Below are positions 415 through 50,483 of a stretch of DNA of 64,000 bases, one piece after another. The DNA comes from an uncultured virus (IMG/VR IMGVR_UViG_3300025949_000021) (Duplodnaviria > Heunggongvirae > Uroviricota > Caudoviricetes). Every line of letters starts with the position of its first letter. Positions within the stretch are counted from its first letter, which is position 1. Under the pieces are notes generated by a model that saw nothing but the letters and a program-made list of their open reading frames with translations, did not search any database and was not told where the DNA came from. Where the stretch lies: the IMG/VR virus record IMGVR_UViG_3300025949_000021; one strand, given 5' to 3'. The position numbers and the translations under genes are program-made.

Positions 415-437
415 TCCTTCTCTCCCTATAAATTGAA

Positions 438-790
438 GTTGGCAAACTAACTAAGCCTACGCAGCAGTTTCTGGCTAATGCGATTTTTACTGATTAGCTG
501 CCAACATAGAAACGGACAGGGCTTGATACCTGCTAGGAAAGCCTCCTAACTACATCGCTAGGGCCATCCGGCTGCGCGCATTCACCGCGTGTCCTTCCAC
601 GCCGCCGCTTCTATGTTGGCCCTGAGACTTTCACTCAGGCTACGTTTCCATTACGTACTCCGCTGGTGCTACTTGGCATTCCAACTGTCTTGCTGTGCAC
701 CGACTGGCGAGCAAGCTTGGGAAGGTCTGCCAAAGGTGCCGGACACTGATTCCGGCTTGCGCTTCGACCCTCTCGGGCTAGGCCAGTGTT
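438..790 (-). ncRNA. Array of structured RNA modules in the leftward leader (stems 438-505, 500-620, 621-639, 673-733, C4-like 3' arm 735-790)
   Basis: Inverted repeats gttggca/tgccaac, gccaacatagaa/ttctatgttggc, cctgag/ctcagg, ttggca/tgccaa; no credible ORF; same architecture in unit 2. Confidence 0.7.
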
Positions 791-5232: not shown

Positions 5233-5588
5233 TTGCCTTTAGAGTCGTTTTATTGGTGGTGAATACCCGGAGTGACGGGTTCACGTGTGGGAAAGAACCC
5301 CTGATGTAGTTCAGGGACCGTATGCGAAAGCATAATTTGCCGGAGACGGCAAAACGGTCAGACCCATTTGATGCTCACGAATTGACGTTGTTAAGCCGTT
5401 AAACGTAGGCTGGTTTGAGTCCAGTTAAGCCGGGTCAACATACTTCCGGCCGCCACCAATAAAACGACTCGCAGTTCGTCAGAGCTACGACAAGTAATAC
5501 GGTAAGGACTGCCGGTACTCAGAAAAGGTCTGCGCTTACTAGCAAGACGGCGCGAGGGAGTTGAGCAGCTACCCCAGGAACAAGGCAA
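5233..5588 (+). ncRNA. Large multibranch structured RNA (putative)
   Basis: 18-bp perfect stem 5242-5259/5453-5470, outer stem ttgcctt/aaggcaa, several internal hairpins; no + strand ORF of 60 aa or more. Confidence 0.65.
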
Positions 5589-9231: not shown

Positions 9232-9585
9232 ATGAAGACCTCTGAACTCGACGGCCATCTGCTGGACTACTGGACTGGGCGCGCGTTAGGTAAAAGCGTA
9301 CAAATCCTCAAGCATCAGCGAGATGAGAGCTATTTTTGTTCGGAAGAGTACGCGCCTGGAGATGTATTTATTGGCCGACCGACGTTGAAGCTTTGGAATC
9401 CATCTGAGGATTGGTCGATTGGAGGGCCTCTTATAGAGAGGCATCTAATTGAAGTTGAAAGAGTGGGTAAGAAATGGAAAACGCAAGATGAGACTTTTGG
9501 GACAACTTTGCTAATTGCAAACTGTCGGGCTATCATTAAATTTCATATTGGCGATGAAGTTCCAGATGAAGGAGAGAAAGAATGA
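9232..9585 (+). CDS. NinX/DUF2591-like protein
   Basis: KTSEL.G..LDYW...WNPSEDWSIGGPLIE. Confidence 0.75.
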   Translation: MKTSELDGHLLDYWTGRALGKSVQILKHQRDESYFCSEEYAPGDVFIGRPTLKLWNPSEDWSIGGPLIERHLIEVERVGKKWKTQDETFGTTLLIANCRAIIKFHIGDEVPDEGEKE

Positions 9586-10001
9586 AGATGTGGATTGATA
9601 CAGAGTTCAATTCGTTTAAGGGTGAGTTGATTTCGATGGCTATCGTTACGCAGGATGGCCGCGAGTTTTACGAATCGCTAGGATGCTTTGATCCTGACCC
9701 ATGGGTGGCGGAAAACGTTATTCCAGTAATCGGGAAAAAGCAGATCGGATTTATAGAGCTCCAAGATAAGTTGTATAAGTTTCTTTTGCCATATGAACAT
9801 ATGCATCTTATTGCAGATTGGCCCGAAGATATTCAGCACTTTTGCGAAACTTTGATAATTGGTCCGGGGCTCCGTATTAGCACGCCATTGCTGACGATGG
9901 AAATCCGGCGTGATTTGGATGCAGAAAGCGAGATTCCGCATAATGCATTATCGGATGCTCGTGCTATCAAGGCTAAATACATGTCGCTTGTGACTGATTA
10001 A
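9582..10001 (+). CDS. DEDDh 3'-5' exonuclease-like protein
   Basis: IDTEF...ADWPED...HNALSDA motifs. Confidence 0.8.
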   Translation: MKMWIDTEFNSFKGELISMAIVTQDGREFYESLGCFDPDPWVAENVIPVIGKKQIGFIELQDKLYKFLLPYEHMHLIADWPEDIQHFCETLIIGPGLRISTPLLTMEIRRDLDAESEIPHNALSDARAIKAKYMSLVTD

Positions 10002-10004
10002 TAC

Positions 10005-10032
10005 TTGTATTTCGGCATACATTTGCTATGAT
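10005..10032 (+). promoter_or_regulatory. Sigma70-like promoter for the ncRNA array
   Basis: TTGTAT-N16-TATGAT with extended TGn; boxes conserved at 48914-48941. Confidence 0.7.
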
Positions 10033-10080
10033 GAAGGTTCTCACATCCAAGGTGCTTCGCTTCGGCAGGTTTCTTTGATA

Positions 10081-10428
10081 GCCTGGAAAGACAGGCACTT
10101 AACGCATGCTGACTTTGAATAAAATAATGTCACGACATGGGCGGCCTCCCCCGCACAGGAAGTCAGCAGTCGTTAGGTGAATGCGTAGGCTGATGCGCAG
10201 CGAGCAGCACTGGAAACCGCGACCCGTATTAAACCAGTGATACGGCCCATGCCGGAGATCAGTACCGGCCACCTATTCAATACGCAGATAAGCATAAATA
10301 CTGGCAGGCGCAAGTATAGCCTTGTAGGCATACAGGGAAGTAGTAAAGGCCAATCAACCTTTATTGCTATACAGCCGGAAAGACGGCATAGTAAAATACG
10401 TAAGAGGGCGCAACCGTCCGAGGATTAA
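10081..10428 (+). ncRNA. Array of structured RNA modules
   Basis: Hairpins gcctggaaagacaggc and gccggaaagacggc; stems 10100-10175, 10174-10275, about 10299-10392; junctions conserved in unit 2. Confidence 0.7.
10174..10275 (+). ncRNA. C4 antisense-family-like RNA
   Basis: GGTGAATGCGTAGGCTGATGCGC...GCCGGAGATCAGTACCGGCCACC matches my recollection of the C4 family; CTGAT/ATCAG loop complementarity. Confidence 0.75.
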
Positions 10429-10456
10429 CAATAAACATTAACTTCGGAGCAATACA

Positions 10457-10810
10457 ATGCTAAGAGCTCTCTTAGGAATGACGCAAGGAACGGCAGATGC
10501 GTTATATTCCACAAAAAACACCACGCAAAAGGTTGTGCCTACTACAGGACAAACAGTCACTTTTGCCAATAACTCAATTGACCAGACGATTTATCTTGCC
10601 CCGGCAGGCGTGCTGGCAACATTGACAGTGACATTGCCAAGTGACGCCACAAGCCGTTTAGGTCAACGAGTAACCTTCTGCACATCTCAAAACATTACAT
10701 TGCTTACACTTAATGGCGCATCAACCATTATGAACACGGTAAGCTCGCTGACTTCAAGTGATTGTTTCACATTCCAAAAAATCGACACCAATACATGGAT
10801 TCACGCATGA
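10457..10810 (+). CDS. Thr-rich beta protein resembling virion fibre domains
   Basis: LAPAG.LATLTVTLP...GQRV pattern; homologue 49378-49734. Confidence 0.75.
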   Translation: MLRALLGMTQGTADALYSTKNTTQKVVPTTGQTVTFANNSIDQTIYLAPAGVLATLTVTLPSDATSRLGQRVTFCTSQNITLLTLNGASTIMNTVSSLTSSDCFTFQKIDTNTWIHA

Positions 10811-11550
10811 AATACCTAATCCTCTCTTTATTGGCAATTAGCCAACTTTCGTTTGCTGCTCCATTCTCAACTCGGATGATGAGCCGCAATTCAATGGACA
10901 ATGGGAACGTCACCCAGGATATCGGACCTCCTCCAAGTGCTGGCGTGATTGGATACGATATCCCGAACAATGCTCCTTTCTGGGTAACGCTTGGGTCTGG
11001 TCTAGCTTTCACTGGCAGCGTATTGGATGTAACGGCAACGCCAGTAAATGCAGATTGGAATTCAAGCACAGGGCTTAGCCAAATTCTTAATAAGCCATCT
11101 ATCCCGGCTGCGCAAGTCAATAGCGATTGGAATGCATCTAGCGGTGTAGCTCAGATCCTGAACAAGCCTACTATCCCAACAATCACCCCACCAAGCCAAT
11201 CTAGTGCTACTCGCACCCTTAATACAGCGTTCAAGATTAGTGCGACACGTCCTACACTAGTAGTCTATAGCGTACAGATCACCGTAACAGCGTCTATTGC
11301 TGGTGGTCAGAATGGCGATGTAATCCTAGAGATTGCAAGTGATAGTGGTTTCACAACGAACGTGCAGACATTGAGTATTGCAGGAAACGGGCAGACTTAT
11401 ACATTGGCAATTGCTTTGCAAGGTATTCAACCTACAACGAATGTCGTGAGTGGGTTTGTTCCTGCTGATTACTATGCGAGGTTGCGCACAGTCAATAACT
11501 CGGGGACGCCAACATTTACTTATCGTGCAGGCCAAGAAATTCAAATGTAA
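10807..11550 (+). CDS. Signal-peptide protein with tail-fibre-type DWN...ILNKP repeats
   Basis: MKYLILSLLAISQLSFA-AP; two VN.DWN.S.G..QILNKP repeats; homologue 49731-50474. Confidence 0.8.
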   Translation: MKYLILSLLAISQLSFAAPFSTRMMSRNSMDNGNVTQDIGPPPSAGVIGYDIPNNAPFWVTLGSGLAFTGSVLDVTATPVNADWNSSTGLSQILNKPSIPAAQVNSDWNASSGVAQILNKPTIPTITPPSQSSATRTLNTAFKISATRPTLVVYSVQITVTASIAGGQNGDVILEIASDSGFTTNVQTLSIAGNGQTYTLAIALQGIQPTTNVVSGFVPADYYARLRTVNNSGTPTFTYRAGQEIQM

Positions 11551-11559
11551 GGAGAGAAA

Positions 11560-11955
11560 ATGCTACGCCGAGTAACGAAACAAGAGTATCAAGCGCAATC
11601 AAACATTCGCCCAGATGCTATTGGTTACTGCCTAGAGTGCTGGAGGTACCATATGTCAGGCACTCAAGCAGCAAATCTCAGCGCAAGGCCAATGGGAGGA
11701 TTGACAGCAAATGAGGATGGTTACGGGCATGACCCGCATGAAGCCCAATTAGCTCAGGATGCAAAGATAGGCGCAGCAACAAATGCCTGTATAGAAAGTC
11801 TCAAGCCTCGCCACAAATGGTCAGTCTATAAAACATTAGGGATGGGCCAAGTAATGCAGTTCAACTTTGCCGACCTGCTCCACACTTACGATGAAGCAAA
11901 GGCAGAGTTAGAAAGATTGCTTAAAAAGAACTTTGATACTGGTTATCTTTTCTGA
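11560..11955 (+). CDS. Putative Q-like late antiterminator
   Basis: Directly upstream of promoter-terminator-terS; LE.W motif and helical C-terminus. Confidence 0.6.
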   Translation: MLRRVTKQEYQAQSNIRPDAIGYCLECWRYHMSGTQAANLSARPMGGLTANEDGYGHDPHEAQLAQDAKIGAATNACIESLKPRHKWSVYKTLGMGQVMQFNFADLLHTYDEAKAELERLLKKNFDTGYLF

Positions 11956-11965
11956 CAACAACCTA

Positions 11966-11994
11966 TTGCATTCCTACAAACTAAGTAGTATTCT
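11966..11994 (+). promoter_or_regulatory. pR'-like late promoter
   Basis: TTGCAT-N17-TATTCT; counterpart 50891-50919. Confidence 0.65.
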
Positions 11995-12057
11995 CTGTAT
12001 CCGAAGGCGGGATAATTGCCTTCAAAATTTCCCTCTCCTCCGCGTCAGCGTGAGTTT

Positions 12058-12089
12058 AAGCCGCACCGTAACTGGTAGCGGCTTTTTTT
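12058..12089 (+). terminator. tR'-like intrinsic terminator
   Basis: aagccgc...gcggctttttt. Confidence 0.85.
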
Positions 12090-12134
12090 ATTTCAGCAAT
12101 CGAAGAGAAGATAGAACAACAAACGGAGTAAATC

Positions 12135-12377
12135 ATGCTTGTGATAGACAAGGCAACCCAAAAGATTCTAGGGACTTGCGACGCACAAGTAACTGGAAAA
12201 GCGTTCATCGTAGTACGTACTCCTCAGCCGGATGTTATATTTCCATTGGTATATATCAGTTGGGGAGAGACTCCGGCTGTTATCCAAACAGTTCCAGCGT
12301 TACAAGCTGATAATTTAAACCAGGCGCAAACCTACTTGCCAAACTTCATCGAATACGTGAAGCCAAACATGGCATAG
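12135..12377 (+). CDS. Hypothetical protein inserted before terS (unit 1 only)
   Basis: GGAG RBS; absent in unit 2. Confidence 0.6.
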   Translation: MLVIDKATQKILGTCDAQVTGKAFIVVRTPQPDVIFPLVYISWGETPAVIQTVPALQADNLNQAQTYLPNFIEYVKPNMA

Positions 12378-12422
12378 GAAGCGTTAATCAATATCGGTCT
12401 AACACCGAGAAAGATTAATAAA

Positions 12423-12743
12423 ATGTCAACAAATCCAGGAACCTTTAAGAAAGGTGAAAAAAGGCCCGGTCAAGGACGCCCAAAGGGATGCGTAAATAAG
12501 TCTACGCAAGAGTTCAGAATGACCGTACAGGCGCTTTTGGATGATAACCGTACCAATGTAGCCACTTGGCTGCAACAGGTCGCAGAAGGCTCAGGAGACG
12601 TTAAGCCTGATCCGGGCAAGGCGCTTGATTTGCTGGCTAAGTTGGCTGAGTTTGCGGCCCCTAAGCTGGCTCGCACAGAAATCACCGGTAAGGATGGTGA
12701 CGCAATCGAAACAGTGAGCCGCATTGAACTAGTTGGGCAATGA
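12423..12743 (+). CDS. terS: Terminase small subunit
   Basis: FKKG...GRPKG..NK and EITGKDG motifs; coupled to terL. Confidence 0.8.
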   Translation: MSTNPGTFKKGEKRPGQGRPKGCVNKSTQEFRMTVQALLDDNRTNVATWLQQVAEGSGDVKPDPGKALDLLAKLAEFAAPKLARTEITGKDGDAIETVSRIELVGQ

Positions 12744-14149
12744 CCACTATTCAGGTAAAGCTGCCTAAGAAGCTAGTTCCGGTCTTTAGTGGTGAGGCAG
12801 ATGTAAGAGGCGCACATGGCGGTCGAGGATCAGGCAAGACAAGATCCTTTGCCAAGATGGCCGCTGTGAGAGGTTACATATACGGTAAGCAGGGCATCAA
12901 AGGCCAAATTCTTTGCGCTCGCCAGTTCATGAACTCTCTTGAAGATTCAAGCCTAGAAGAATGTAAGCGAGCAATCGAGGAAGAACCTTTTCTTCTTGCT
13001 TATTACGACATAGGTGAGAAGTACATCAAGAGTAAAGATGGGCGCATAACCTTTTCCTTTGCTGGACTAGATCGCAATATCGACAGTATCAAGTCTAAGG
13101 GCCGTATCCTTATTTGCTGGGTAGATGAGGGTGAGCCGGTTACAGAGAACGCATTCAAGACGCTAATCCCTACATTGCGGGAAGAAGGCGACGATTGGAA
13201 TGCTGAGCTTTGGGTAACTTGGAACCCAGAGCGTAAAAGTTCGGCAGTTCACAAGCGGTTTCGTTTAAGTAAAAATCCTCGCATCAAGGTCGCTGAGATT
13301 AACTGGCGAGACAATCCTTGGTTTCCTGCAACGCTTGAACGTACGCGAGTTAGTGATTTGCTAGAGCGTCCTGACACATATGATCACGTTTGGGAAGGCG
13401 CATTCGGCAACTTACAAGGTTCTATTCTGGGTAAGTGGGTAGCAGCAGCACGTAGGGAAGGGCGGATAACAAACGACATTGCCTACGATCCTAATGGTGC
13501 GCCTATCTATGTGTCGAGTGACTTAGGTTTTAGAGATACGGCTTCATGGTGGTACTGGCAGCCTCTTCCTGGTGGATTCAACCTGTTGAAGTATGAAGGC
13601 GAATCGGGCTTTGATGCTGATGACTGGATTCCGCGCATTCAGGAAGTATTGACTGAAATCGTAGGGATTGATTTCTCATCTAAAGAGGCAAAAGGCAAGC
13701 TAGGCAAGATATTCCTTCCGCATGATGCCAAGGCTAAGACGTTTCAAAGCAAGCACACAAGTATCGAACGGTTTGTAAAGGGATTCGGCCACGATCACAT
13801 GAAGATCGTTGACCAGTCTCGTAAGCTGGATCAGATTAGCGCAGCTAGAGCGGTTATCGCCAAATGCGCATTTAATGAAGATGCTTGCGAAGAAGGAATT
13901 GATGGGCTGGAAGCGTGGGAATTTGAGTTTAATAAGGACACTGAGGTTTTCTCGAAAGAGCCAATCCACAATTGGGCGAGTCATCCATCAGATGCTTTTG
14001 CGTATGGCTGTCAGGCTATGCAGGAAGTCATTATTAAGCCTGCTGACAAGCCGCCAGTCTTCCCGGCTAAAGGAATGAATGGACGCATCATTACAGCGCC
14101 ACTTGATGATTTATGGAAATCCACCCCAACTAGGGACGACAGAATATGA
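12740..14149 (+). CDS. terL: Terminase large subunit (PBSX/SPP1-type)
   Basis: GGRGSGKT Walker A, WVDE Walker B, TWNP, DLG, H..DA nuclease motifs. Confidence 0.95.
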   Translation: MTTIQVKLPKKLVPVFSGEADVRGAHGGRGSGKTRSFAKMAAVRGYIYGKQGIKGQILCARQFMNSLEDSSLEECKRAIEEEPFLLAYYDIGEKYIKSKDGRITFSFAGLDRNIDSIKSKGRILICWVDEGEPVTENAFKTLIPTLREEGDDWNAELWVTWNPERKSSAVHKRFRLSKNPRIKVAEINWRDNPWFPATLERTRVSDLLERPDTYDHVWEGAFGNLQGSILGKWVAAARREGRITNDIAYDPNGAPIYVSSDLGFRDTASWWYWQPLPGGFNLLKYEGESGFDADDWIPRIQEVLTEIVGIDFSSKEAKGKLGKIFLPHDAKAKTFQSKHTSIERFVKGFGHDHMKIVDQSRKLDQISAARAVIAKCAFNEDACEEGIDGLEAWEFEFNKDTEVFSKEPIHNWASHPSDAFAYGCQAMQEVIIKPADKPPVFPAKGMNGRIITAPLDDLWKSTPTRDDRI

Positions 14150-14460
14150 AGATTGAAGCATTCTCGGCGCAAAGCCAAACCCTCACGATCTTGGCCGGAA
14201 CGACCGCCAGTGCATCGCTTAATCTGCCTGCTATTGGCAACAATGTTCGCGTGGTGAATGAGGCCACTGTTACTATCTACGTCAAGATTGGCACAGGCGC
14301 GCAAACAGCGATCACTCCGACCGCAGGCGTTCCAGCATCGGTAGTGGCAGTCCTGCCTGGCGATGTAGTGTTCAGTATTCCTAACGTTCAATTGCAGGTC
14401 AGCGTGATTACTGCGACTGGGGCAGGCAATATTTATTTCTCCGTTGGTGAAGGTGTCTAA
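14146..14460 (+). CDS. Small beta-rich putative virion protein
   Basis: Between terL and portal; A/T/V-rich. Confidence 0.65.
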   Translation: MKIEAFSAQSQTLTILAGTTASASLNLPAIGNNVRVVNEATVTIYVKIGTGAQTAITPTAGVPASVVAVLPGDVVFSIPNVQLQVSVITATGAGNIYFSVGEGV

Positions 14461-16544
14461 TGATAGATGACGCCGTAGATACTTCGGCAGATAAGGACGA
14501 GTATAAAAGTGCGTCACAATGGTTGATCGCACTCAAGCTTGCCGAAAAGGATCAAAAGAAGTGGATTGAACGCGGCAAGAAGATCGTTCGTCGTTTCCGC
14601 GATGATCGACAAGGCGCATTCAAAGAGAAGCGTTACAACATTCTTTGGTCGAATGTCAGAACCATGTTCCCGGCTATCTACAGCAAGAAGCCGAAAGCGC
14701 AGGTTGAGCGGCGTTACAAAGACGCTGCGCCAGAAGCTCGTTGTGCATCCGAGATCCTTGAGCGAGTTCTGCAATATGAAATTGATCATTATTGCGATTT
14801 TGACGCTGCTATTCGGGGAGCTTTGCTTGATCGCCTTCTTCCAGGCCGTGGCGTAGCATGGGTTCGATTTGAGGCTCAGGTTCCAAACGATCAGCAAGTT
14901 CAAACTACTGACGATGCGCAACAAGACGTTGTTCCGAACAAGTATGAATGTACTCCATCGGATTATGTGTTTTGGGAAGATTTCCGTTGCTCTCCTGCGC
15001 GCACCTGGGAAGAGGTAACTTGGGTTGCTCGTCGCGTCTACATGGGACGCGAAGAGGGAATTGAGCGTTTCGGCGATATCTTTAAAGAAGTCCCATTAGC
15101 TAGTGTGCCTATTGGTCTGGAAGAGTTGCAGCAAGAGATGGCAAACAGCTCCTCGACCGAGAAGATGAAGAAGGCCAAGGTTTGGGAGATTTGGGACAAG
15201 AATACGCTCACGGCTAATTGGATTGCTGAGGATTTTTCAAAGCAACTTGATGAGAAGCCTGACCCGATTGAGGTTGACGGCTTCTTCCCATGCCCTAAGC
15301 CGCTGTACGCAACACTGACGACAGACACGCTCATTCCCGTTGCTGACTATATCGAGTATCAGGACCAAGCGAACGAGTTGGATAACCTGACGCAGCGCAT
15401 TTCGATGCTGGTCAAAGCGGTAAAGGTTGTTGGCGTCTATGATGCAAGCCAAACTGGCATTCAGCGCCTTCTCAATGAGGGTGTTGATAATGTGATGATC
15501 CCTGTTGATAACTGGGCTCAGTTCGGTGAGAAGGGTATCAAGGGTACAACTGATTTCCTGCCGATTGATATGGTTATAGGTGCTTTGAATGAGCTGTACA
15601 AAGCCCGCGATATCTGCAAACAGGTCATTTACGATATCACTGGTCTGTCCGATATCATACGTGGCTCGTCCGTAGCCTCTGAGACCGCCACAGCACAGCA
15701 AATCAAGAGTAACTATGCATCTCTCCGGTTGAAAGAAACAATCAGCGATGTAGCACGTTTTGCTTCGGATATCCTCCGTCTCAAAGCGGACATGATTTGT
15801 AGTTTTTACTCGTCCCAGGCATTGAAAGATATATCGGGGATTATGGGCACGGATGATGCGCCTTTAGCTGACCAGGCTATTGCATTGCTCAAGTCGGAGC
15901 CATTGCGTAACTATCAAATTGAGGTTGCCACTGATTCGATGGTTGAGTTGGATGAGCAGCAAGAGAAGCAATCTCGCATGGAGTTCTTGCAAGCTGCTGG
16001 CGGATTCTTGAAGCAAGCTGTAGAAGCTGCGCAGCAAGTGCCAGAATTGGCCCCATTGATGGGTGAAATGCTCATGTTCGGTGTGCGTGGATTCAAGGCT
16101 GGTCGTCCAATTGAAGCTGCATTTGAATCGACTGTTAAGGCTCTCAGCAAGCCACAACCAAAAAAGCCAGACCCTGAGCAAATGAAGATGCAAGCCGAAC
16201 AGCAGCAAGCACAGCAAAAGATGCAAATGGATATGCAAATTGCTCAGCAAAAAGCACAAATTGATCAGCAAACAGAAGCGGCACGCGCTCAGGCTGATAT
16301 GGCTATTGAACGTGCGCGCATGCAAATGGAAGCACAGTTCGAACAACAGCGCTTAGCGATGGAAGCGCAAGCTAACATGCAACGCGGCCAAGTAGAGATG
16401 CAACTAGAAGAAATGCGTATGCAGCTTGAGCAATGGAAAGCTATGAAACAAGCTGAGACACAAATTACTGTCGCAGAGATTTCCGCTCAGACTACTTTGA
16501 CGACTCAGCAGAATGACGCCGCCAACCAAGCTGCGGAGGATTAA
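14460..16544 (+). CDS. Portal protein with Gln-rich coiled-coil C-terminus
   Basis: Size, position and P22-like C-terminal barrel composition. Confidence 0.85.
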   Translation: MIDDAVDTSADKDEYKSASQWLIALKLAEKDQKKWIERGKKIVRRFRDDRQGAFKEKRYNILWSNVRTMFPAIYSKKPKAQVERRYKDAAPEARCASEILERVLQYEIDHYCDFDAAIRGALLDRLLPGRGVAWVRFEAQVPNDQQVQTTDDAQQDVVPNKYECTPSDYVFWEDFRCSPARTWEEVTWVARRVYMGREEGIERFGDIFKEVPLASVPIGLEELQQEMANSSSTEKMKKAKVWEIWDKNTLTANWIAEDFSKQLDEKPDPIEVDGFFPCPKPLYATLTTDTLIPVADYIEYQDQANELDNLTQRISMLVKAVKVVGVYDASQTGIQRLLNEGVDNVMIPVDNWAQFGEKGIKGTTDFLPIDMVIGALNELYKARDICKQVIYDITGLSDIIRGSSVASETATAQQIKSNYASLRLKETISDVARFASDILRLKADMICSFYSSQALKDISGIMGTDDAPLADQAIALLKSEPLRNYQIEVATDSMVELDEQQEKQSRMEFLQAAGGFLKQAVEAAQQVPELAPLMGEMLMFGVRGFKAGRPIEAAFESTVKALSKPQPKKPDPEQMKMQAEQQQAQQKMQMDMQIAQQKAQIDQQTEAARAQADMAIERARMQMEAQFEQQRLAMEAQANMQRGQVEMQLEEMRMQLEQWKAMKQAETQITVAEISAQTTLTTQQNDAANQAAED

Positions 16545-16870
16545 TGCCAATCTATCTCATGCATTGTGATTCCTGCCATGCCGAACAGGATTTGTATCGC
16601 TCTGTTGCCAAGATGGACGAAGACTTGCCTCATTGCTGTGGTGAACAGATGCGCCGTAAGATTTGCGCGCCTTACGTTGTAGCAGATATTCAACCATATA
16701 AAAGCATGGCAACAGGCGAAATGATTACCTCTCGCTCCAAGCATAAACAGCATTTGCGTGATCATGGATTAGTGGAGATTGGCAACGAAACGCCAAAACA
16801 AAAGGCTATTGAGAAGCCGCGAGACATAAAGAAGGATTTGCACGAAGTTATGGCCGGTTACGGTCTTTAA
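16544..16870 (+). CDS. FmdB-like zinc-ribbon protein
   Basis: MPIY..HCDSC...CCG..MRR. Confidence 0.75.
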   Translation: MPIYLMHCDSCHAEQDLYRSVAKMDEDLPHCCGEQMRRKICAPYVVADIQPYKSMATGEMITSRSKHKQHLRDHGLVEIGNETPKQKAIEKPRDIKKDLHEVMAGYGL

Positions 16871-17668
16871 TCAACCCCAAGGAGGCCGAATGGCAACCCA
16901 AGACGATCTGCGGGGGGAATTGGAAAGCGTTTTTGATGCTGCTCCTGCCCCTGCTCAAGAAGTTGAACAGCCAGTAGTTGAAACAACATCAGAAACACAA
17001 GCTGAGACAGAAGCGCGCCAGCGTGACGAATCAGGCCGATTCAAAGCGAAAGATGCATCTGTCCAAGATCCTTCCGTACAAAATGCAGCGGCTGAACAAA
17101 CAGCAGCAGCACTAGAAACAAAGCCAGAAGAAAAGCAGATTGATATTACCCGCGCTCCTTCTAGCTGGAAGAAAGAGACAGCGGAATTGTTCGCCACTCT
17201 TCCTCCTGATGTGCAAGCTGAAATTCATCGCCGTGAAACAGACTTCCATAAAGGCTACGGCAAACAGTTTGAGGAAAGCCCTGCATACAAGCAAATGGCT
17301 CCTTTGGCTGAGGCTGGTTCTCGTTTTACTCAAATTGCCGAACAATACAAGGAAAATTATAAGCAATTCGGGATTACTGGAGAACAGGCAATCGGAGAGT
17401 TATTCAAAATGGATAACGATCTAAAAAATGCGCCTCCAGCAGTAAAGTTTGAAAAGTTTATGGGATTGGCTCGATATTATGGGATCGACCTAAATCAGCA
17501 ATTCGCTCCAGAAGTTGCGCAGATGCAGCAACGTATGTATGAACTTGAGCAACAAAATAAGCAGTATTTAGAAGGACAGCAAACCCGCGAAATGCAAGCT
17601 GTAACCAGCGAGATTCAAAAGTTTGCCGAAGCACCAGGCCATGAACATTTTGACAAAGTTCGTATGCA
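16826..17668. repeat. Apparently identical direct repeat of about 840 bp, copy at about 55467-56309
   Basis: No mismatch seen by eye; shadow-frame ORFs translate identically at offset 38641. Confidence 0.8.
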
Positions 17669-17921
17669 CATGAAAGCCTTGATTGATGGCGGACAGGCAA
17701 ACGACTTGCAAGATGCTTATGATCAAGCAGTTTATGCCAATCCAGAAACACGGAAAGCTTTGCTCGAACAGCAAACCCGTGCGGCACAGGAACAAGCAAA
17801 TGCACATCGTGCGAAATCCGCAGCGGTAGGCGTTAAAGGTTCTTCGCCAGCATCAGGTATGGCCTCTCAGCCTAAGAATTCGTTGCGAGACGAAATCTCG
17901 GCTGCTTTCGAACAATCTTAA
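16890..17921 (+). CDS. Scaffolding protein
   Basis: RDESGRF motif, acidic helical, directly upstream of capsid. Confidence 0.8.
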   Translation: MATQDDLRGELESVFDAAPAPAQEVEQPVVETTSETQAETEARQRDESGRFKAKDASVQDPSVQNAAAEQTAAALETKPEEKQIDITRAPSSWKKETAELFATLPPDVQAEIHRRETDFHKGYGKQFEESPAYKQMAPLAEAGSRFTQIAEQYKENYKQFGITGEQAIGELFKMDNDLKNAPPAVKFEKFMGLARYYGIDLNQQFAPEVAQMQQRMYELEQQNKQYLEGQQTREMQAVTSEIQKFAEAPGHEHFDKVRMHMKALIDGGQANDLQDAYDQAVYANPETRKALLEQQTRAAQEQANAHRAKSAAVGVKGSSPASGMASQPKNSLRDEISAAFEQS

Positions 17922-17932
17922 AGGAGTTTTAA

Positions 17933-18922
17933 ATGGCATCCCCCAATCTGACAGATATTGTCACTACTACGATTCAAAATCGTTCCGGCAAGCTCGCCGA
18001 CAACACATTGAAAAACAATGCGTTGCTTCAATACCTGAACTCGAAAGGCAACGTTAAGCCATTCTCTGGCGGTAACGTGATCCTGCAAGAGTTGATGTAT
18101 AACGATCCAAATACCCAGAATGCAAGCTCGTATTCTGGTTACGATGTGATCGACATTACTCCGAATAGTCCGTTGACAGCGCCACAATATGACATTAAGC
18201 AGTACGCTGCTGCCGTCACTATCTCGGGCCTGGAACAGCTGATGAATTCGGGCAAAGAAGCGATCATTGACTTGCTGGAAGGCCGCATTATGGTCGCCGA
18301 AAAGCAACTGATGAACCAAATCTCTGCTGGTGTTTATTCGGATGGCACAGGCAACGGTGGTAAAGATATTACCGGTCTTGCTGCTGCAATCTCTACCACC
18401 CCGACAACTGGTACTTACGGCGGCATTAACCGTGCGACTTGGACTTTCTGGCGTAACGTTGCATTCTCGGGTGTAACTGATGGTGGCGCACCTGCGAATG
18501 CTTCGAATATCCAGTCGTACATGAACCGCACCATCCTGCAAACTGTTCGTGGTACTGATTCTCCTGATCTGTGCGTTGCGGACAACAACTACTATCGTCT
18601 GTTCTTGGAATCGTTGCAAGCTATCCAGCGAGTGACTACCGAAGAAGATGCCGGTGCAGGCTTCTCCAGCTTGGCATACTTCGGCGCAGGCAAGAAGATG
18701 ATGGTTCGTTTGGATGGCGGTATCGGTGGTTCTATCCCAACAAACCGTATGTACTTCCTGAATACCGATTACATCTTCTTCCGCCCTCACCGTGACCGCA
18801 ACATGGTTCCGATTGGCGGCGATCGTCAGTCGGTCAATCAAGATGCGATTGTCAAGCTGATCGGTTGGGCTGGTAATCTCACCACATCCGGCTCGCAATT
18901 CCAAGCCGTTCTTGGCGCTTAA
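17933..18922 (+). CDS. Major capsid protein
   Basis: 329 aa, strong RBS and codon bias; LADN...NNALL, YGGINRATW family motifs. Confidence 0.9.
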   Translation: MASPNLTDIVTTTIQNRSGKLADNTLKNNALLQYLNSKGNVKPFSGGNVILQELMYNDPNTQNASSYSGYDVIDITPNSPLTAPQYDIKQYAAAVTISGLEQLMNSGKEAIIDLLEGRIMVAEKQLMNQISAGVYSDGTGNGGKDITGLAAAISTTPTTGTYGGINRATWTFWRNVAFSGVTDGGAPANASNIQSYMNRTILQTVRGTDSPDLCVADNNYYRLFLESLQAIQRVTTEEDAGAGFSSLAYFGAGKKMMVRLDGGIGGSIPTNRMYFLNTDYIFFRPHRDRNMVPIGGDRQSVNQDAIVKLIGWAGNLTTSGSQFQAVLGA

Positions 18923-18939
18923 GAAAGAAAGGATAAATC

Positions 18940-19239
18940 ATGGCTGCACCATTTACCTCTACCCCCAAACTTGGGGTTAAACCTCTTGTCACAGTTCTGG
19001 CTACTGATCTGGCTTCGGGCGCTGATAAGCCGCAAGCTCGTCTTGGCGATCAAGTCTGGGCAAGTGATGGCAAACGTTATGTGTACGCACAAGCAAATGC
19101 CTCTATCACTGCTTCTACAGCGGTCTGCACAATCAGCCCTACAACCTTCCTGGTAACTGCTACAGGTGGCGCGTATACTTCTCCTGCGACTGCTATGGTC
19201 ACTGGTGATCAAGGTTGGTTCTCCGCTGCTTCTGTCTAA
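18940..19239 (+). CDS. Putative capsid decoration protein
   Basis: Follows capsid; DG.RYVYAQA motif. Confidence 0.65.
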   Translation: MAAPFTSTPKLGVKPLVTVLATDLASGADKPQARLGDQVWASDGKRYVYAQANASITASTAVCTISPTTFLVTATGGAYTSPATAMVTGDQGWFSAASV

Positions 19240-19248
19240 GGAGATACT

Positions 19249-19635
19249 ATGCCCGGCCTAATCAAAACATTGATGGGCAGTGGCTTTTCTGGTCAACAAG
19301 CAATCGCCTTGAATGGGTATAGCACTGCTGGCGCAACCGCCACAGGCTCTACCCAAGGTACTGCTTACGCGATTCAGACAGAGTTCACTGAATTTACAAC
19401 TGTAGCAGCATCGACCGGGGCAATCCTCCCGGCATCGACTGCTACTTCTGGCATTGTGGGAGGTGATAGCTTCTTTATCGCTAACCAAGGTGCAAATGCT
19501 TTGTCGGTATATCCACCTACTGGCGGTTCTATCGGCTTGGCAGCAACAAATACAGCAGTCTCGGTCGCTTCCGGCAAGACTGCTTATTTCGTAGCCAAGG
19601 GTAACGGCGTTTATTACGCTGTCCTGTCGGCTTAA
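19249..19635 (+). CDS. Putative virion decoration protein
   Basis: A/T/G-rich; N.GANALSVYP motif. Confidence 0.65.
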   Translation: MPGLIKTLMGSGFSGQQAIALNGYSTAGATATGSTQGTAYAIQTEFTEFTTVAASTGAILPASTATSGIVGGDSFFIANQGANALSVYPPTGGSIGLAATNTAVSVASGKTAYFVAKGNGVYYAVLSA

Positions 19636-19640
19636 TCAAA

Positions 19641-19668
19641 AGTCCCCCTTAAATGGGGGATTCTTTCT
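19641..19668 (+). terminator. Intrinsic terminator after the capsid cluster
   Basis: tccccc-ttaaat-ggggga plus T-rich tail. Confidence 0.6.
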
Positions 19669-19679
19669 AGGAGAAATCA

Positions 19680-20246
19680 GTGGACAACTTCACTGCTGAA
19701 CGTCAGAACGATTCCGTATTGACCGTACATTTTTACACCGATGCCATCAAGAATGGTGTTGAGAGCGATGCCGCTGGCCGTCCAGTATTCATGGACGTTG
19801 AAATGGTGCGTATCCTTGTCCCAGGAGACAATAAGCTCGTCATTGACACGAAAGTCGATGAAACGCACAAGTTCCGCTTCCCTCGTCAATACAAAGCTTT
19901 CAAAGAAGGTTTGACCACACAAGTTCGCGGTTGGATCTTGAAGGAATGGCCTGCTGTTACAGCTTCTCAAGTGAAAGAGCTTAACTATCATGAGGTTCAT
20001 ACAGTAGAGCAACTGTCGAATCTCTCTGATGCATCTGTTCATGCTCTCGGAATGGGCATGTATGAACTGCGCACAAAGGCTAAGGCAGCTCTTGAGGCTG
20101 CTGCCGGGAATGCAGAGAATGAAGCGCGTGCTTTGCGCGAAAAACATCTGCAAGAGGAATTGGACAGTATGAAGGCTCAACTCGCAGCCTTGAATACTGC
20201 TGCACTTGATAACAAACGCGGTCCAGGCCGTCCGAAAGCTGAATAA
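19680..20246 (+). CDS. Conserved head-region phage protein
   Basis: GTG start with AGGAG; homologue 58316-58891. Confidence 0.8.
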   Translation: MDNFTAERQNDSVLTVHFYTDAIKNGVESDAAGRPVFMDVEMVRILVPGDNKLVIDTKVDETHKFRFPRQYKAFKEGLTTQVRGWILKEWPAVTASQVKELNYHEVHTVEQLSNLSDASVHALGMGMYELRTKAKAALEAAAGNAENEARALREKHLQEELDSMKAQLAALNTAALDNKRGPGRPKAE

Positions 20247-22675: not shown

Positions 22676-23088
22676 TGGTTATCATAGAACAGCATCCAGC
22701 TTTCTACGAATTCATTAACCATATCTTGAAAGTAAAATTTACTCCTGAAAATGCAAAAGTTATCGCTTCTGTAACACAAGATTGTCAGATAATGGGGGTA
22801 ACAGCATTTTCACGATTTTCTGAACACAATTGTGAGTTGAGTGTAGCTAGTTCTACCCCTCGCTTCATGACTAAAGAGTATTTACGGGCTGTATTTCATT
22901 ATCCGTTCATAACGTGCGGTAAGCGAAGAATCACGGCAATTATTGAAGACGACAATCATCAGGCTCAAGAAATTGACAGGCGACTAGGTTTTGTCTATGA
23001 GGCCACATTGAAGCATTGGTATGGCGAAAAAGATGGAATCGTAATGCGCATGTTGAATGATGAATGCACTTGGATCAAGGATAAATAA
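22675..23088 (+). CDS. GNAT-fold acetyltransferase-like protein
   Basis: RRITA.I...N......RRLGF..E..L pattern; typical podovirus position. Confidence 0.75.
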   Translation: MVIIEQHPAFYEFINHILKVKFTPENAKVIASVTQDCQIMGVTAFSRFSEHNCELSVASSTPRFMTKEYLRAVFHYPFITCGKRRITAIIEDDNHQAQEIDRRLGFVYEATLKHWYGEKDGIVMRMLNDECTWIKDK

Positions 23089-39202: not shown

Positions 39203-39224
39203 TATTCTCTCCCTATAAATTGAA

Positions 39225-39592
39225 GTTGGTGGCCGGTTGCTCATTTCCGGTTGGGCGGTCAACTAATATGCGACCTGAGTAAATTACCCGCCTCGTTACA
39301 TCGCACTCACATCCGCTCGCGCTACGGATATCCACCAACAGGAAAAAGAGGATTACACCCTTTGTTTGCATGCCCTCTCAGCGCGTTCGGTACTGCGCAT
39401 GCATCGGGAAGTCCGTTTTGCTGTGGCTCCCTCTTTCCTGTTGGCCCTCCGCACTAACGCGGCGGAGGTTTAACGGGCATTCCAACTGTCTTGCTGTGCA
39501 CCGACTGGCGAGCAAGCTTGGGAAGGTTTGCCAAACTTTACGCACATATCTAACCTTAGTCTTGTGTTCGCCGTTCAGGTTTGTTTCTGTGC
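39225..39592 (-). ncRNA. Array of structured RNA modules in the leftward leader (39225-39339 C4-like fold, 39335-39444, 39446-39468, 39476-39534, 39541-39592)
   Basis: Stems gttggtgg/ccaccaac, ccaacaggaaa/tttcctgttgg, cctccg/cggagg, cgcaca/tgtgcg. Confidence 0.7.
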
Positions 39593-48684: not shown

Positions 48685-48923
48685 TGGCCTATGTTCGTTT
48701 TGGCTATGAGGGTAATTCAGATTTCTATATCTATGAAGATATAGGCGGTGGATACACAACGCATGTATCTAGTGGAGAAAAATTTAATCACAAAACAAAA
48801 ATCGAATGTTTGGCTAATGTTTTATATATGATGAATGCGCATGAATTAAAATGCCCATCATATCCGTTGGCTAAGCTTTCGGATGAAATCCTCGCAGAAA
48901 TGGGGATTGACCCTTGTATTTAA
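48681..48923 (+). CDS. Hypothetical protein
   Basis: AAGGA RBS; MAYVRF...SDFYIY. Confidence 0.6.
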   Translation: MMAYVRFGYEGNSDFYIYEDIGGGYTTHVSSGEKFNHKTKIECLANVLYMMNAHELKCPSYPLAKLSDEILAEMGIDPCI

Positions 48924-48941
48924 CAGTACATTTGCTATGAT
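48914..48941 (+). promoter_or_regulatory. Promoter of the ncRNA array
   Basis: TTGTAT-N16-TATGAT with extended TGn. Confidence 0.7.
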
Positions 48942-49008
48942 GAGTATGCGATTTGGAATCATCGCGCTTTCTATTGGTGATATATATTCCGTCACGATAT
49001 ATATCCGT

Positions 49009-49350
49009 TGCCTTACGAAACAAGGCACTTAATGGGAGCATGGCAGTACGGACTTTGTATTACTTGCTATGCAGTTGCACGCAGAGTCCTCCCATTAGGT
49101 GAACAAGATTAGCTTATGGGACAAACCAGAGGGCAATCTTAAATGTGGTTGAGAATCTCGGCCCCGCGTATCAATCTTGGATCGCCTATTCAATACGCAG
49201 GTAAGCACAAGTAATAATGGTAGGGACGCCTATTCGGTAGGGCACGCGGCTGTAACCCGCAGGTCGGCTAGTCCGTGAAGGTTCGAATCCTTCTCCTTCC
49301 ACCAAGTTTCTAGTAAAATACGTAAGAGGGCGCAACCGTCCGAGGATTAA
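49009..49350 (+). ncRNA. Array of structured RNA modules (49030-49097, 49096-49188, tRNA, conserved 3' hairpin)
   Basis: taatgggag/ctcccatta; taggtga/tcgccta with caagatt/aatcttg; junctions match 10081-10428. Confidence 0.7.
49219..49304 (+). tRNA. tRNA-Tyr(GUA), long variable arm, encoded CCA
   Basis: gcgg-CTGTAAC-ccgc anticodon arm; gaagg-TTCGAAT-ccttc T arm; ACCA end; one T-T mismatch in acceptor stem. Confidence 0.85.
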
Positions 49351-49377
49351 AAATAAACATTAACTTCGGAGTACGTC

Positions 49378-50474: not shown

Positions 50475-50483
50475 GGAGAGAAA

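Follow-up and report, generated by a model that had tools for sequence, protein, structure and literature searches.

We found that the late-operon leaders of two tandem prophages are strings of separately folding RNA modules behind a conserved promoter-like box, and that the RNA in the second slot of one leader (copy A) is a member of a tRNA-shaped, strongly covarying RNA family. The layout of the leaders, its recurrence, the tRNA carried by one of them and the conservation of the slot-2 family at the RNA level are direct observations. We regard it as moderately probable that the modules are cut out of the late-operon leader as small RNAs and that the cloverleaf RNA acts in trans.

The window, i.e., the whole stretch of 64,000 nt analysed, carries two related prophages in tandem, with late regions (10389-24785 and 49311-63997) that are 83-88% identical. 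The two prophages differ in many short patches. Their late-operon leaders, 10005-10456 (copy A) and 48914-49377 (copy B), are ORF-poor, and neither overlaps an ORF longer than 63 aa. NinX-family genes (PF10765) lie upstream of the leaders (9232-9585 and 48002-48367) and the genes for small terminase, large terminase and portal follow downstream; the promoter-like box stands immediately 3' of the nin region, ahead of the late genes, as in lambdoid late leaders. No Q-type antiterminator was recognised among the upstream ORFs by PHROG and Pfam, so the label of late promoter is given by position; a regulator of an unrecognised type may be present. The terminator scan detected no site in the copy A leader, including the 3' side of slot 2, and in copy B one weak site near the promoter, one within an ORF and no others. 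No close named relative of the phage was found (best large-terminase identity, 47%), and blastn of the array against named phages gave no match at 1e-5.

Both copies were read and then aligned to define the shared blocks, which come in the same order in each (Table 1). The alignment bore out the initial annotation, which had described common promoter boxes, scaffold and order at 10005-10428 and 48914-49350, and the picture of separately folding RNAs, strung along one strand of an ORF-poor stretch downstream of a conserved promoter-like box, is supported. The 28-nt pattern of the box, TTGTAT-16 nt-TGcTATGAT (extended -10), is identical in all four arrays (4/4), i.e., the two of the window and arrays C and D described below. 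A consensus scan does not call the box, whose -35 element matches 3/6 positions, and the promoter is thus a putative one, read from the sequence. At the other end, the 61-nt 3' block runs into the ribosome-binding site of the first late ORF, and a hairpin at the ribosome-binding site is present in the predicted folds of both copies. The modules' own closing stems and linkers make up the conserved junction strings; GGTGAA..CCTA, formerly taken for neutral scaffold, is the closing stem and junction of the slot-2 RNA itself. The junction CAG(G/A)UAAG resembles ACAGGTAAG(A/G)G, the inter-module string in P1-type and HK620 arrays.

Table 1. Positions of shared blocks, modules and weak slot-2 relatives in the window (A and B, the two leader copies).
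Feature	Position	Strand	Basis and remarks
Block 1, TTGTATTT-N5-TACATTTGCTATGAT	10005-10032 and 48914-48941	+	A/B alignment
Promoter-like box, A	10005..10032	+	TTGTAT 10005-10010, 16-nt spacer ending TG-c, TATGAT 10027-10032
Promoter-like box, B	48914..48941	+	Reading and A/B alignment
Slot 0, A, variable stretch between promoter box and H0	10033..10080	+	A vs B z = -0.7
Block 2, hairpin GCCT..GAAA..AGGC then ACTTAA (H0)	10081-10102 and 49010-49032	+	Alignment
H0 hairpin, A, GCCUGGAAAGACAGGC then ACUUAA	10081..10102	+	Identical in A, C and D; variant in B
H0 hairpin, B, GCCUUACGAAACAAGGC then ACUUAA	49010..49032	+	Alignment
Slot 1, A, stem-closed module	10103..10172	+	Fold -24.7 kcal/mol, z = -2.6
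Slot 1, B, stem-closed module (UAAUGGGAG/CUCCCAUUA)	49033..49094	+	Fold -25.3 kcal/mol, z = -2.0
Block 3, TTAGGTGAA	10173-10181 and 49095-49103	+	Alignment
Slot 2, A, tRNA-shaped RNA	10168..10281	+	Model R1, 111.6 bits by construction (sequence in seed)
Slot 2, B	49095..49194	+	Closing stem and GAA junction as in A, interior different; fold z = -0.8
Block 4, CCTATTCAATACGCAG(A/G)TAAGCA	10272-10294 and 49185-49207	+	Alignment
Junction, A, CCUAUUCAAUACGCAGAUAAGCA	10272..10294	+	First bases are the 3' strand of slot-2 stem P1
Junction, B, CCUAUUCAAUACGCAGGUAAGCA	49185..49207	+	A/B alignment
Slot 3, A, four hairpins in series, ending GCCGGAAAGACGGC	10295..10388	+	Fold -33.7 kcal/mol, z = -3.9
Slot 3, B, tRNA-Tyr (anticodon GTA), long variable arm	49219..49304	+	ARAGORN; Rfam RF00005
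Block 5, conserved 3' block, 61 nt	Starts 10389 and 49311	+	Alignment; 60/61 identical A vs B
3' block, A, predicted hairpin covering part of the GGAG ribosome-binding site	10389..10456	+	First late ORF, ATG at 10457
3' block, B, ribosome-binding-site hairpin	49311..49377	+	First late ORF starts 49378
Weak slot-2 relative, early region of phage A	5250..5462	+	R1 18.4 bits, E 0.01 to 0.06; 213 nt
Weak slot-2 relative ('module A' of the initial annotation)	39220..39344	-	R1 16.7 bits, E 0.03 to 0.17

The same junctions are found on DNA other than the window, as the initial annotation had anticipated. Array C (IMG/VR contig L088) and array D (metagenome contig L217) have the promoter box, H0, TTAGGTGAA and the junction around other interiors, and among the four arrays the contents vary between phages inside conserved flanks, with one slot empty: slot 3 is missing in D and holds a 70-nt tRNA-like insert in C (Rfam tRNA-Sec model, 23.7 bits, E 0.06). 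As a query, the exact 3' block matched only the two phages of the window and the promoter pattern only arrays A, B and C. The junction string matched twice in metagenomes, once in a true array (L217) and once by chance (L218); in genome contigs its one match, inside a Vibrio CDS (L216), was also by chance.

The interiors of A and B score like shuffles in global alignment (z: slot 0, -0.7; slot 1, 0.6; slot 2, 0.2); they do not align as ordinary diverged homologues. The term 'unrelated' of the initial annotation does not fit slot 1 of A, C and D, where the outer stem CGCAUGCUGA../..AGUCAGCAGUCG is common and the interior differs (alignment z of 5.3-6.7 among the three, 0.6 against B). At the position of slot 0, arrays C and D have a small ORF with a strong ribosome-binding site. 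The fold of slot 3 in copy A was equalled in stability by none of 200 shuffles, and ARAGORN and Rfam made no tRNA call there. The tRNA-Tyr announced for slot 3 of copy B was confirmed by ARAGORN (GTA) and by RF00005 (42.3 bits, threshold 29), tRNA membership applying to that slot only; it starts 27 nt past the P1' strand of the slot-2 stem (CCUA, 49185-49188) and 11 nt past the junction string (49207 to 49219), a wider spacing than the 4-9 nt seen at eight loci of other DNA (below). Complementarity between slot interiors and the window reaches 10-11 nt in the best runs, as in shuffles. The sole possible exception is one 14-mer in slot 1 of copy B.

The slot-2 family was represented by a covariance model (R1), with independent members obtained by blast and pattern search. 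The family plan is a closing stem P1 of 7-9 bp, a junction AA, a hairpin P2 UGCGCA[GGCUGA]UGCGCA, a variable arm and a hairpin P3 GCCGG[AGAUCAGCA]CCGGC abutting P1'. Copy A has every element, with P1 UAGGUG/CACCUA, junction AA, P2 UGCGUA[GGCUGA]UGCGCA, the variable arm at 10203-10254 and P3 GCCGG[AGAUCAGUA]CCGGC directly against P1'. Stem P1 measures 7-9 bp in 84 of 115 loci and P3 meets P1' without a spacer; the AA junction is present in 102/102 family sequences and the arm is hypervariable (32-65 nt). In the same 102 sequences 95.9% of the cells are paired, vs 82.2% in shuffles, and in every one of the eight P1 pairs (8/8) both partners vary. Covariation scores 0.371, compared with 0.124 for shuffles (0/500 reach it) and at most 0.147 for slid partners. 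The GU/UG pairs outnumber AC/CA pairs by 76 to 17, which fixes the transcribed strand of the family. The hairpin sequences are kept across phages with large terminases only 45-50% identical. Between the two hairpin loops there is complementarity (GCUGA/UCAGC), a putative kissing contact that has no covariation support, the loops being invariant partly because the search pattern fixed them. No conserved element resembling an anticodon loop was found in the variable arm of the family. One member (L113) carries tRNA D-arm and T-arm sequence inside this arm.

At E<=10 the tRNA model RF00005 has no match in 9900-10500 and in copy B matches only the tRNA-Tyr; the likeness of slot 2 (A and B) and slot 3 (A) to tRNA is one of layout only. 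The proposal of tRNA-like small RNAs holds to this extent for slot 2 of copy A, which is tRNA-shaped and belongs to a family that occupies tRNA positions in the arrays of other phages.

The interior of slot 2 in copy B contains CAAGAUU and two AAUCUU(A/G) sites, each of them a possible pairing partner for it. The R1 scores of slot 2 in B, C and D are inflated because the flanks of A are in the seed: 5.3 bits for B (filters off, E 0.16, only P1 aligned), 15.8 bits for C and 28.8 bits for D (E 3e-7). C, like B, shares little with the family beyond the closing stem. D has an additional insert within P2 and its P3 resembles a T-arm; it probably belongs, in diverged form, to the family of A, and the claim that the slot-2 contents are all unrelated is not supported. 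Two weak relatives were detected elsewhere in the window. The one in the early region of phage A has P1 UUGGUGGUG/CGCCACCAA, then GAAU and a P2-like hairpin; it contains the T-arm-like CUGGUUUGAGUCCAG and sits after the terminator-like GGGCUUUUUUU. The one on the minus strand has P1 GUUGGUG/CACCAAC, followed by UUCAAUUUAUAGGGAGAG and a leftward gene start, and the TTCAAT trailer that had been reported after this module is present. In phage A the corresponding element (about 430-520, minus strand) has the same flanks around a different interior.

The slot-2 family pattern was detected in at least 120 IMG/VR contigs and in 261 named phage records, including P1, HK620, Shiga-toxin phage records and large virulent Klebsiella phages, and 899 of 5,426 complete E. 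coli genomes contain at least the 5' half of the RNA. R1 at E<=1e-4 matched one of 151 random genomes of one class, a figure of little weight, as no more than 24 candidates per genome were scored. The phage P1 member (NC_005856 69814-69921, 49.6 bits) stands in the leader of the ban operon, 3' of the dicF-like region, trnA and trnT; the P1 record leaves it unannotated and places two CDS (plp, upl) antisense across it. A P1-type plasmid has two full copies, and in a virulent Klebsiella phage a member shares a CDS-free stretch of 3.3 kb with STnc100 and two tRNAs. Among the 25 E. coli rows listed, PGAP annotates nothing at the motif in 23 and a 'hypothetical protein' in 2.

Twenty tRNA genes were found near 17 of 115 loci, all on the strand of the motif (20/20), and eight of them start 4-9 nt after P1', which supports release by tRNA processing rather than demonstrating it. 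Small RNAs and tRNAs on one strand with tRNA-like spacing are the layout of T4-type clusters, and the clusters of phage P1 and the Klebsiella phage agree with it. Terminator-like sites within 200 nt were detected downstream at 29 of 112 loci vs upstream at 12 of 110. RNA-library contigs from four runs of four studies span the HK620-type leader including the motif, which indicates presence only, as these are assembled contigs, which give neither ends nor strand nor level and may derive in part from DNA; no processed ends were observed. In one of the runs (X11) a 239-nt contig (1200-1410) has a depth of 567, vs 52 for the motif contig, contig depths and ends being unreliable; its end at 1200 is adapter-joined, and the assembly graph branches at a junction string (1410).

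We propose that the leader would form the 5' part of a late (virion) operon, the phage being temperate and of lambdoid type, with the conserved extended -10 promoter directly 3' of the nin-region genes producing one transcript. This transcript would carry, in order, H0, the stem-closed slot 1, the tRNA-shaped cloverleaf of slot 2, slot 3 and the ribosome-binding-site hairpin; slot 3 may be filled by a tRNA, a tRNA-like piece or other hairpins, or left empty, and the module interiors are probably exchanged or free to diverge between phages. Host tRNA-maturation nucleases would release the modules as discrete stable small RNAs, with RNase P potentially cutting at the 5' end of the following tRNA and RNase E or exonucleases taking part. 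The tRNA may supplement decoding, and the cloverleaf RNA may, like its closest known relatives STnc100/PasD, have a role in trans, the hypervariable arm being a potential specificity element on a rigid scaffold of closing stem and two kissing hairpins. We infer the trans role by analogy with STnc100/PasD, whose Rfam model misses the window. A more general hypothesis, possible and worth stating but in our view unlikely, is that phages of Proteobacteria share a mobile RNA cassette, i.e., a tRNA-shaped scaffold that the tRNA-processing enzymes of the host treat as a tRNA, with an exchangeable arm serving as guide, decoy or immunity RNA in conflicts of phages with hosts or with one another. The scaffold could then be freed from any transcript that carries it, the arm would give each phage its own specificity, and the filled, swapped and empty slots would be a system caught exchanging its payloads.

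The location of the leader directly between the promoter-like box and the first late ORF would also suit a purely cis-acting leader, which tunes the late genes by promoter-proximal pausing or antitermination, transcript stability or masking of the ribosome-binding site, the modules not being independent and the tRNA being a passenger. The nearly invariant 3' block folding over the ribosome-binding site in both copies, the terminator-like hairpin just 3' of the promoter in copy B, the HK620 member between the annotated pR'/qut and the late terminator and the L007 member ending about 10 nt before a small ORF all point the same way. Yet the slot-2 RNA precedes unrelated genes (lysis proteins in 19 of 134 products examined, also terminase, methyltransferases and many unknowns) and follows unrelated ones (Q-like proteins in 14/109, CI-like repressors in 7/109, with the phage 1720a-02 member downstream of cI), a pattern not expected of a cis element that serves a single type of gene downstream. 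Members also stand in CDS-free tRNA islands of virulent phages and in tandem copies, and in the eight loci mentioned above a tRNA, not a gene start, comes next; we consider cis action alone rather unlikely. Improbable, too, seems a special case of trans action, in which the RNAs would be decoys and spare tRNAs that take up or stand in for the targets of tRNA-cleaving host defences, or would act against competing phages. No gene for defence or anti-defence was linked, the variable arm has no conserved anticodon-loop-like element and the phage P1 array is under the C1-repressed ban promoter, implying lytic expression and not expression in the lysogen. Such a role would nevertheless explain the tRNA-like shape (7-9 bp closing stem, 2-nt junction, 5-bp stem abutting the 3' strand), the hypervariability of the arm as the mark of an arms race, the D-arm and T-arm sequence in the L113 arm, the placement where lysogens transcribe (pR'-tR' leader, downstream of cI) and the tRNA-Tyr in the same array.

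The C4 RNA of phage P1 is an RNase P substrate. The initial annotation had called slot 2 C4-like; on this reading it would be an RNase P-matured immunity antisense RNA of C4/CI type that pairs with target boxes of its own operon and blocks expression downstream. The small structured RNA in a phage operon leader and the two hairpin loops of conserved sequence recall such an RNA, and the variable parts could set heteroimmune specificity. However, neither array has a match to C4 and related families, nor, beside the tRNA-Tyr, another meaningful match, in Rfam at E<=10; the conserved loops are complementary to each other and not to a downstream site, complementarity to the rest of the window is at chance level, and phage P1 itself carries the slot-2 RNA in the ban leader, apart from the immI region. 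This already disfavoured identity deserves hardly any credence. It is also very improbable that the interiors have no RNA function, being junk or morons recombined at short conserved DNA, with hairpins that are incidental or act at the DNA level. Phage genomes are mosaic, the short patches between the two prophages and the branching of the X11 assembly graph at the junction string would fit this, and it is possible for slot 0, for the interiors of slot 1 and for slot 2 in copy B, for which no homologues were found. For slot 2 of copy A it is largely refuted by the compensatory changes in all P1 pairs, by the excess of G-U over A-C pairs on one strand only, by the hairpin sequences kept across phages with distant large terminases and by the consistent orientation relative to neighbouring tRNAs.

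To return to the trans-acting, processed modules that we favour: annotation mostly passes over the non-coding leaders of phage operons or gives them doubtful small ORFs, as with the two antisense CDS in phage P1. Here the blank is a strongly covarying RNA family listed in no RNA catalogue, which sits in tRNA arrays and where prophages put genes expressed in the lysogen. Should the variable arm confer a specificity, regulation between phage and host or between phages would gain a widespread layer that can be tested; without it, too, the family merits annotation. It also ties prophage sRNAs of the STnc100/PasD type to a much larger superfamily.

Rfam 15 has no entry for the slot-2 family (searched with the window, HK620, phage P1 and the Klebsiella phage), and full-text searches of the literature found no description of the motif; PasA or PasC may be identical with it. 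The helix order of the hammerhead, HDV-like, twister-sister and pistol ribozymes does not fit, and Rfam gave no match to them. The closest plan is that of STnc100 (RF02076), UGGUG-AAU-hairpin...hairpin-CACCA in the Rfam consensus. The STnc100/PasD scaffold, i.e., a closing stem, an A-rich junction of 2-3 nt, a first hairpin and a last hairpin abutting the stem, is found in the slot-2 family alignments; both have variable middle hairpins, with an AAU or AA junction, and both occur among phage tRNAs, as in the Klebsiella phage. RF02076 matches neighbouring elements in the Klebsiella phage (47 bits) and phage P1 (33.4 bits), and in phage P1 it matches the same element as R1; it has no match in the arrays of the window at E<=10. 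PasD are prophage sRNAs of pathogenic E. coli structurally related to STnc100, and the STnc100/PasD neighbourhood is the Q antiterminator and the holin/lysozyme genes of lambdoid prophages (10.64898/2026.05.13.724894), like that of the slot-2 family. In contrast, the hairpin sequences and loops differ, and STnc100 and the Pas sRNAs have their own terminator, which is absent behind slot 2 in the window.

The architecture had been thought to be without description, yet PMC8022706, PMC3014915 and 10.64898/2026.05.13.724894 and the annotation of the phage P1 ban leader present arrangements of the same kind. P22-like and other lambdoid phages (L, Sf6) carry a same-strand tRNA 3' of the late promoter and ahead of the first late genes, and the authors state that its excision from the late mRNA is unknown (PMC8022706). 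These late operons are described for tRNAs only, whereas in the window the tRNA is one module type among several on a shared scaffold. The tRNA region of T4 includes RNAC and RNAD, stable small RNAs of unknown role that are co-transcribed with the tRNAs (PMC3014915); T4 is, however, a virulent phage whose cluster is not a late-operon leader, and the likeness to RNAC/RNAD is by description, not by sequence or structure. The C4 antisense RNA of P1/P7 is likewise a small structured phage RNA cut from a longer transcript, but the slot-2 loops are complementary to each other and not to a downstream target. In the ban leader of phage P1 about 2.5 kb of genes for small RNAs and tRNAs (dicF-like region, trnA, trnT, trnI) separate a repressor-controlled promoter from the protein gene. 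Taken together, clusters of tRNAs and small RNAs in phage leaders are already known, and the arrays of the window vary that theme.

The window holds a tandem pair of related prophages, phage A and phage B, whose late regions share 83-88% identity and whose early regions are a mosaic patchwork (Table). Each flagged stretch (array A or B) has the last of the nin-region genes upstream and the first late ORF downstream, with small terminase, large terminase and portal genes after that ORF, and neither stretch contains an ORF longer than 63 aa; we therefore regard both as late-operon leaders. The sole other above-threshold Rfam match in the window, to the Betaproteobacteria-1 RNA, may hint at the host group.

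Table. Features of the two prophages, their leaders and the slot-2 RNA (positions in the window).
Feature	Copy	Position (strand)	Details
Prophage	A	1-33000
Prophage	B	38789-64000
Late region	A	10389-24785
Late region	B	49311-63997
NinX-family gene	A	9232-9585	Pfam PF10765
NinX-family gene	B	48002-48367	Pfam PF10765
RNase H-like gene	A	9582-10001	two small ORFs at the same place in B
HNH endonuclease gene	B	47473-48000	missing from copy A there
Leader array	A	10005-10456
Leader array	B	48914-49377
Block 1	A and B		promoter-like box TTGTAT-16 nt-TGcTATGAT
Block 2	A and B		hairpin H0 + ACUUAA
Block 3	A and B		UUAGGUGAA
Block 4	A and B		CCUAUUCAAUACGCAG(A/G)UAAGCA
Block 5	A and B		61-nt 3' block, 60/61 identical; in each copy predicted to fold across the ribosome-binding site
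Hairpin GCC(U)GGAAAGAC(A)GGC	A	10081-10096	H0
Hairpin GCC(U)GGAAAGAC(A)GGC	A	10372-10385	end of slot 3
Part of slot 1 interior	B	49054-49067	UUUGUAUUACUUGC
Complementary site, late gene	A	25912-25925	14 nt
First late ORF	A	starts 10457
First late ORF	B	starts 49378
Slot-2 RNA, 5' to 3'			closing stem P1; invariant AA junction; P2; variable arm; P3; P1'
P2 hairpin			UGCGCA[GGCUGA]UGCGCA
Hypervariable arm			32-65 nt, median 51.5
P3 hairpin			GCCGG[AGAUCAGCA]CCGGC; abuts the 3' strand of P1
Slot-2 scaffold relative		5250-5462 (+)	213 nt; 18.4 bits; closing stem UUGGUGGUG/CGCCACCAA, GAAU, then first hairpin
Leftward leader array		39220-39344 (-)	following gene starts near 39201
Leftward leader array		about 430-520 (-)	following gene starts near 413
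RF02932 match	B, early region	43965-44089 (+)	51.8 bits; gathering score 49.4

The initial annotation described the two leaders as arrays with a shared scaffold and exchangeable slots, and this observation was confirmed: reading and alignment bore out the shared blocks in the order claimed, and the tRNA-Tyr of copy B is real. The interiors of A and B did not align as ordinary diverged homologues, since they score like shuffled sequence (z -0.7 to 0.6). The putative promoter is supported by an extended -10, by where it lies and by being identical in all four arrays (A, B and the arrays C and D described below); the consensus scan did not call it because the -35 box agrees only at TTG. The strings GGTGAA and CCTA, proposed as scaffold, are the closing stem and junction of the slot-2 RNA itself and not neutral linkers. 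The interpretation is supported in part.

The small hairpin found twice in copy A also occurs in another phage (L019, 1132-1238), where it takes the place of P3 in a degenerate member of the family, and it may be a reusable building block. The slot 1 interior of copy B echoes the promoter box (TTGTAT..TTGCTATG) and has a 14-nt complementarity to a late gene of phage A, which may be due to chance, as such a run was reached in about 1/100 shuffles and five modules were tested.

Junction and promoter strings retrieved two further arrays, C on an IMG/VR contig (L088) and D on a metagenome contig (L217), showing that the junctions recur outside the window; everything else that the strings matched belonged either to the two phages of the window or, by chance, to coding sequence. 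C and D retain the promoter box, H0, the slot boundaries and the junction. Their first leader element, right after the promoter box, is a small ORF of 28-31 codons (slot 0) with a strong ribosome-binding site, AAAGGAG; it could encode a leader peptide or micro-protein, and the two peptides are unrelated in sequence. In slot 1 the outer stem of A is kept around two new interiors, and this stem carries the similarity among A, C and D (z 5.3-6.7). Slot 2 holds third and fourth types of content, while slot 3 is empty in D and in C holds a 70-nt tRNA-like piece (Rfam tRNA-Sec model, 23.7 bits, E 0.06), with a tRNA-His farther along. Such differing contents in a kept scaffold demonstrate that modular exchange within constant flanks is real, and exchange is also nested, with one outer stem around different interiors.

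The slot principle extends beyond the late leader: a second, leftward leader array, preceding a conserved minus-strand gene, has the same flanks (GUUGG.. / ..CCAAC-UUCAAUUUAUAGGGAGAG) and different interiors in the two phages. A relative of the slot-2 scaffold was also detected in the window by R1, the covariance model of the slot-2 family; it contains the T-arm-like CUGGUUUGAGUCCAG, with the terminator-like GGGCUUUUUUU immediately upstream.

When the arrays were compared by short-word blast with 80 loci surrounding related terminases, the slot-2 element of copy A unexpectedly recurred in phages with a large terminase identity of only 45-50%. The pattern of its two conserved hairpins matched at least 120 IMG/VR contigs, and blastn with one member as query found the family in 261 named phage records (Klebsiella 81, Pseudomonas 62, Escherichia 54, plus others). 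Of 5,426 complete E. coli genomes, 899 contain at least the 5' half of the motif, and 218 of the places where it occurs are on plasmids. For the structural alignment, 16 of the 120 matches (duplicates, or with too little sequence at one end) and then five further loci were left out, and the window plus 99 of 104 distinct loci gave 102 aligned sequences.

Support for the structure is strong. Paired cells amount to 95.9% in the 102 sequences versus 82.2% for shuffles, all eight pairs of the closing stem (8/8) changed on both sides, and the covariation score is 0.371, compared with 0.124 for shuffles (0/500 reach the observed value) and at most 0.147 for slid partners. G-U pairs (76) outnumber A-C (17), so the selected molecule is the RNA of the motif strand. 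The closing stem (7-9 bp in 84/115 loci), the 2-nt junction and the 5-bp last stem stacked directly on the closing stem are the junction rules of the tRNA cloverleaf. At E<=10 the slot-2 RNA matched no family of Rfam 15, tRNA included. The P2 and P3 loops are mutually complementary (GCUGA/UCAGC), and their pairing could replace the D-loop/T-loop contact; both loops were fixed by the search pattern, so the aligned set could show no covariation for this contact. In the other arrays slot 2 departs from the family by degrees (D 28.8, C 15.8, B 5.3 bits with R1), with scores that are inflated because these arrays share the flanks of A and A is in the model seed. The variable arm of one IMG/VR member (L113) contains tRNA D-arm and T-arm sequence (GUAGCUCAGUUGGUAGAGC ... 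GCGGGUUCAAGUCCCGC) without an anticodon arm.

The HK620 family member is flanked by the annotated pR'/qut on one side and by the late terminator on the other, with the holin gene downstream, and in phage 1720a-02 it lies 450 nt 3' of a cI-like gene on the same strand. Upstream same-strand ORFs at the IMG/VR loci gave 109 distinct products, which include 14 Q-like antiterminators (five PHROG families) and seven CI-like repressors; lysis proteins account for 19/134 downstream products, the others on both sides being diverse or unknown. tRNA genes occur in 17/115 distinct contexts, all 20 tRNAs share the motif strand, and in 8 loci the tRNA starts 4-9 nt past P1', the neighbour spacing of tRNA arrays. 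Terminator-like sites were detected within 200 nt downstream in 29/112 loci versus 12/110 in the upstream control. In its placement the RNA therefore behaves as a discrete unit, its 3' end fixed either by a terminator or by the beginning of a tRNA, and not as an element bound to one downstream gene type.

Phage P1 carries a member (49.6 bits) in the ban-operon leader, in the order C1-controlled promoter, dicF-like region, trnA, trnT, family member; the CDS plp and upl (NC_005856 69472-70041), annotated antisense over this member and its neighbours, may be mis-called. A P1-type plasmid (L211) has two full copies and further variants, between which a string with complementary halves, ACAGGTAAG(A/G)G...TGCTCTT, is repeated; the window junction CGCAGGUAAGCA resembles the first half of this string. 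ACAGGTAAG(A/G)G(C/T)ATT and a later (A/G)TGCTCTT(T/A)CC pair and close a further module type in L211 (2430-3330) and HK620 (L209, 2150-2500), one such L211 module containing the T-arm-like GAGGGUUCGAAUCCCUA, and in 23/115 loci the motif is preceded by TGCTCTT at no more than 40 nt. Two IMG/VR loci (L100 and L202) have two full copies each, spaced 190-430 nt, so tandem module arrays exist outside P1-type elements. A virulent Klebsiella phage has its member in a CDS-free stretch of 3.3 kb that also contains STnc100 and two tRNAs.

Taken together, the leaders are one-strand arrays of separately folding RNAs, a real tRNA included, with a conserved promoter-like box upstream; slot 2 of copy A is under RNA-level selection, and its family is placed like a tRNA in tRNA arrays and at prophage positions transcribed in the lysogen. 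We suggest that the modules would be freed by RNase P, cutting at the tRNA that follows, together with RNase E and exonucleases; that the cloverleaf RNA, by analogy with STnc100/PasD, may act in trans and owe its specificity to the variable arm; and that the 3' block possibly modulates how well the first late ORF is translated. Contigs from RNA libraries (four runs, four studies) cover the HK620-type leader, motif included, and show presence only. Against this scheme, within the window slot 2 is followed by no terminator and no close tRNA, no Q gene was recognised, and no target for the modules was found there.

The most interesting part is the widespread, uncatalogued tRNA-shaped RNA with a swappable arm; no description of this family, or of the shared scaffold with exchangeable interiors, was found in the literature searched. 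Its plan is the same as that of STnc100 (Rfam consensus), UGGUG-AAU-hairpin ... hairpin-CACCA, followed in STnc100 by its terminator, and R1 and RF02076 match one and the same phage P1 element. A 2026 preprint from the Storz laboratory presents PasD as a structural homologue of STnc100, places the Pas sRNAs next to Q and holin/lysozyme genes, and has PasA cut from a longer transcript (10.64898/2026.05.13.724894). The slot-2 motif could conceivably be PasA or PasC. Late operons that begin with tRNA genes are described for P22-like phages, the authors leaving open whether these tRNAs are excised (PMC8022706), and the T4 tRNA region yields two small RNAs of unknown role (PMC3014915). As a kind, the leader-cluster architecture is therefore known, from STnc100 and the Pas RNAs, the P22-like tRNAs and the T4 small RNAs.
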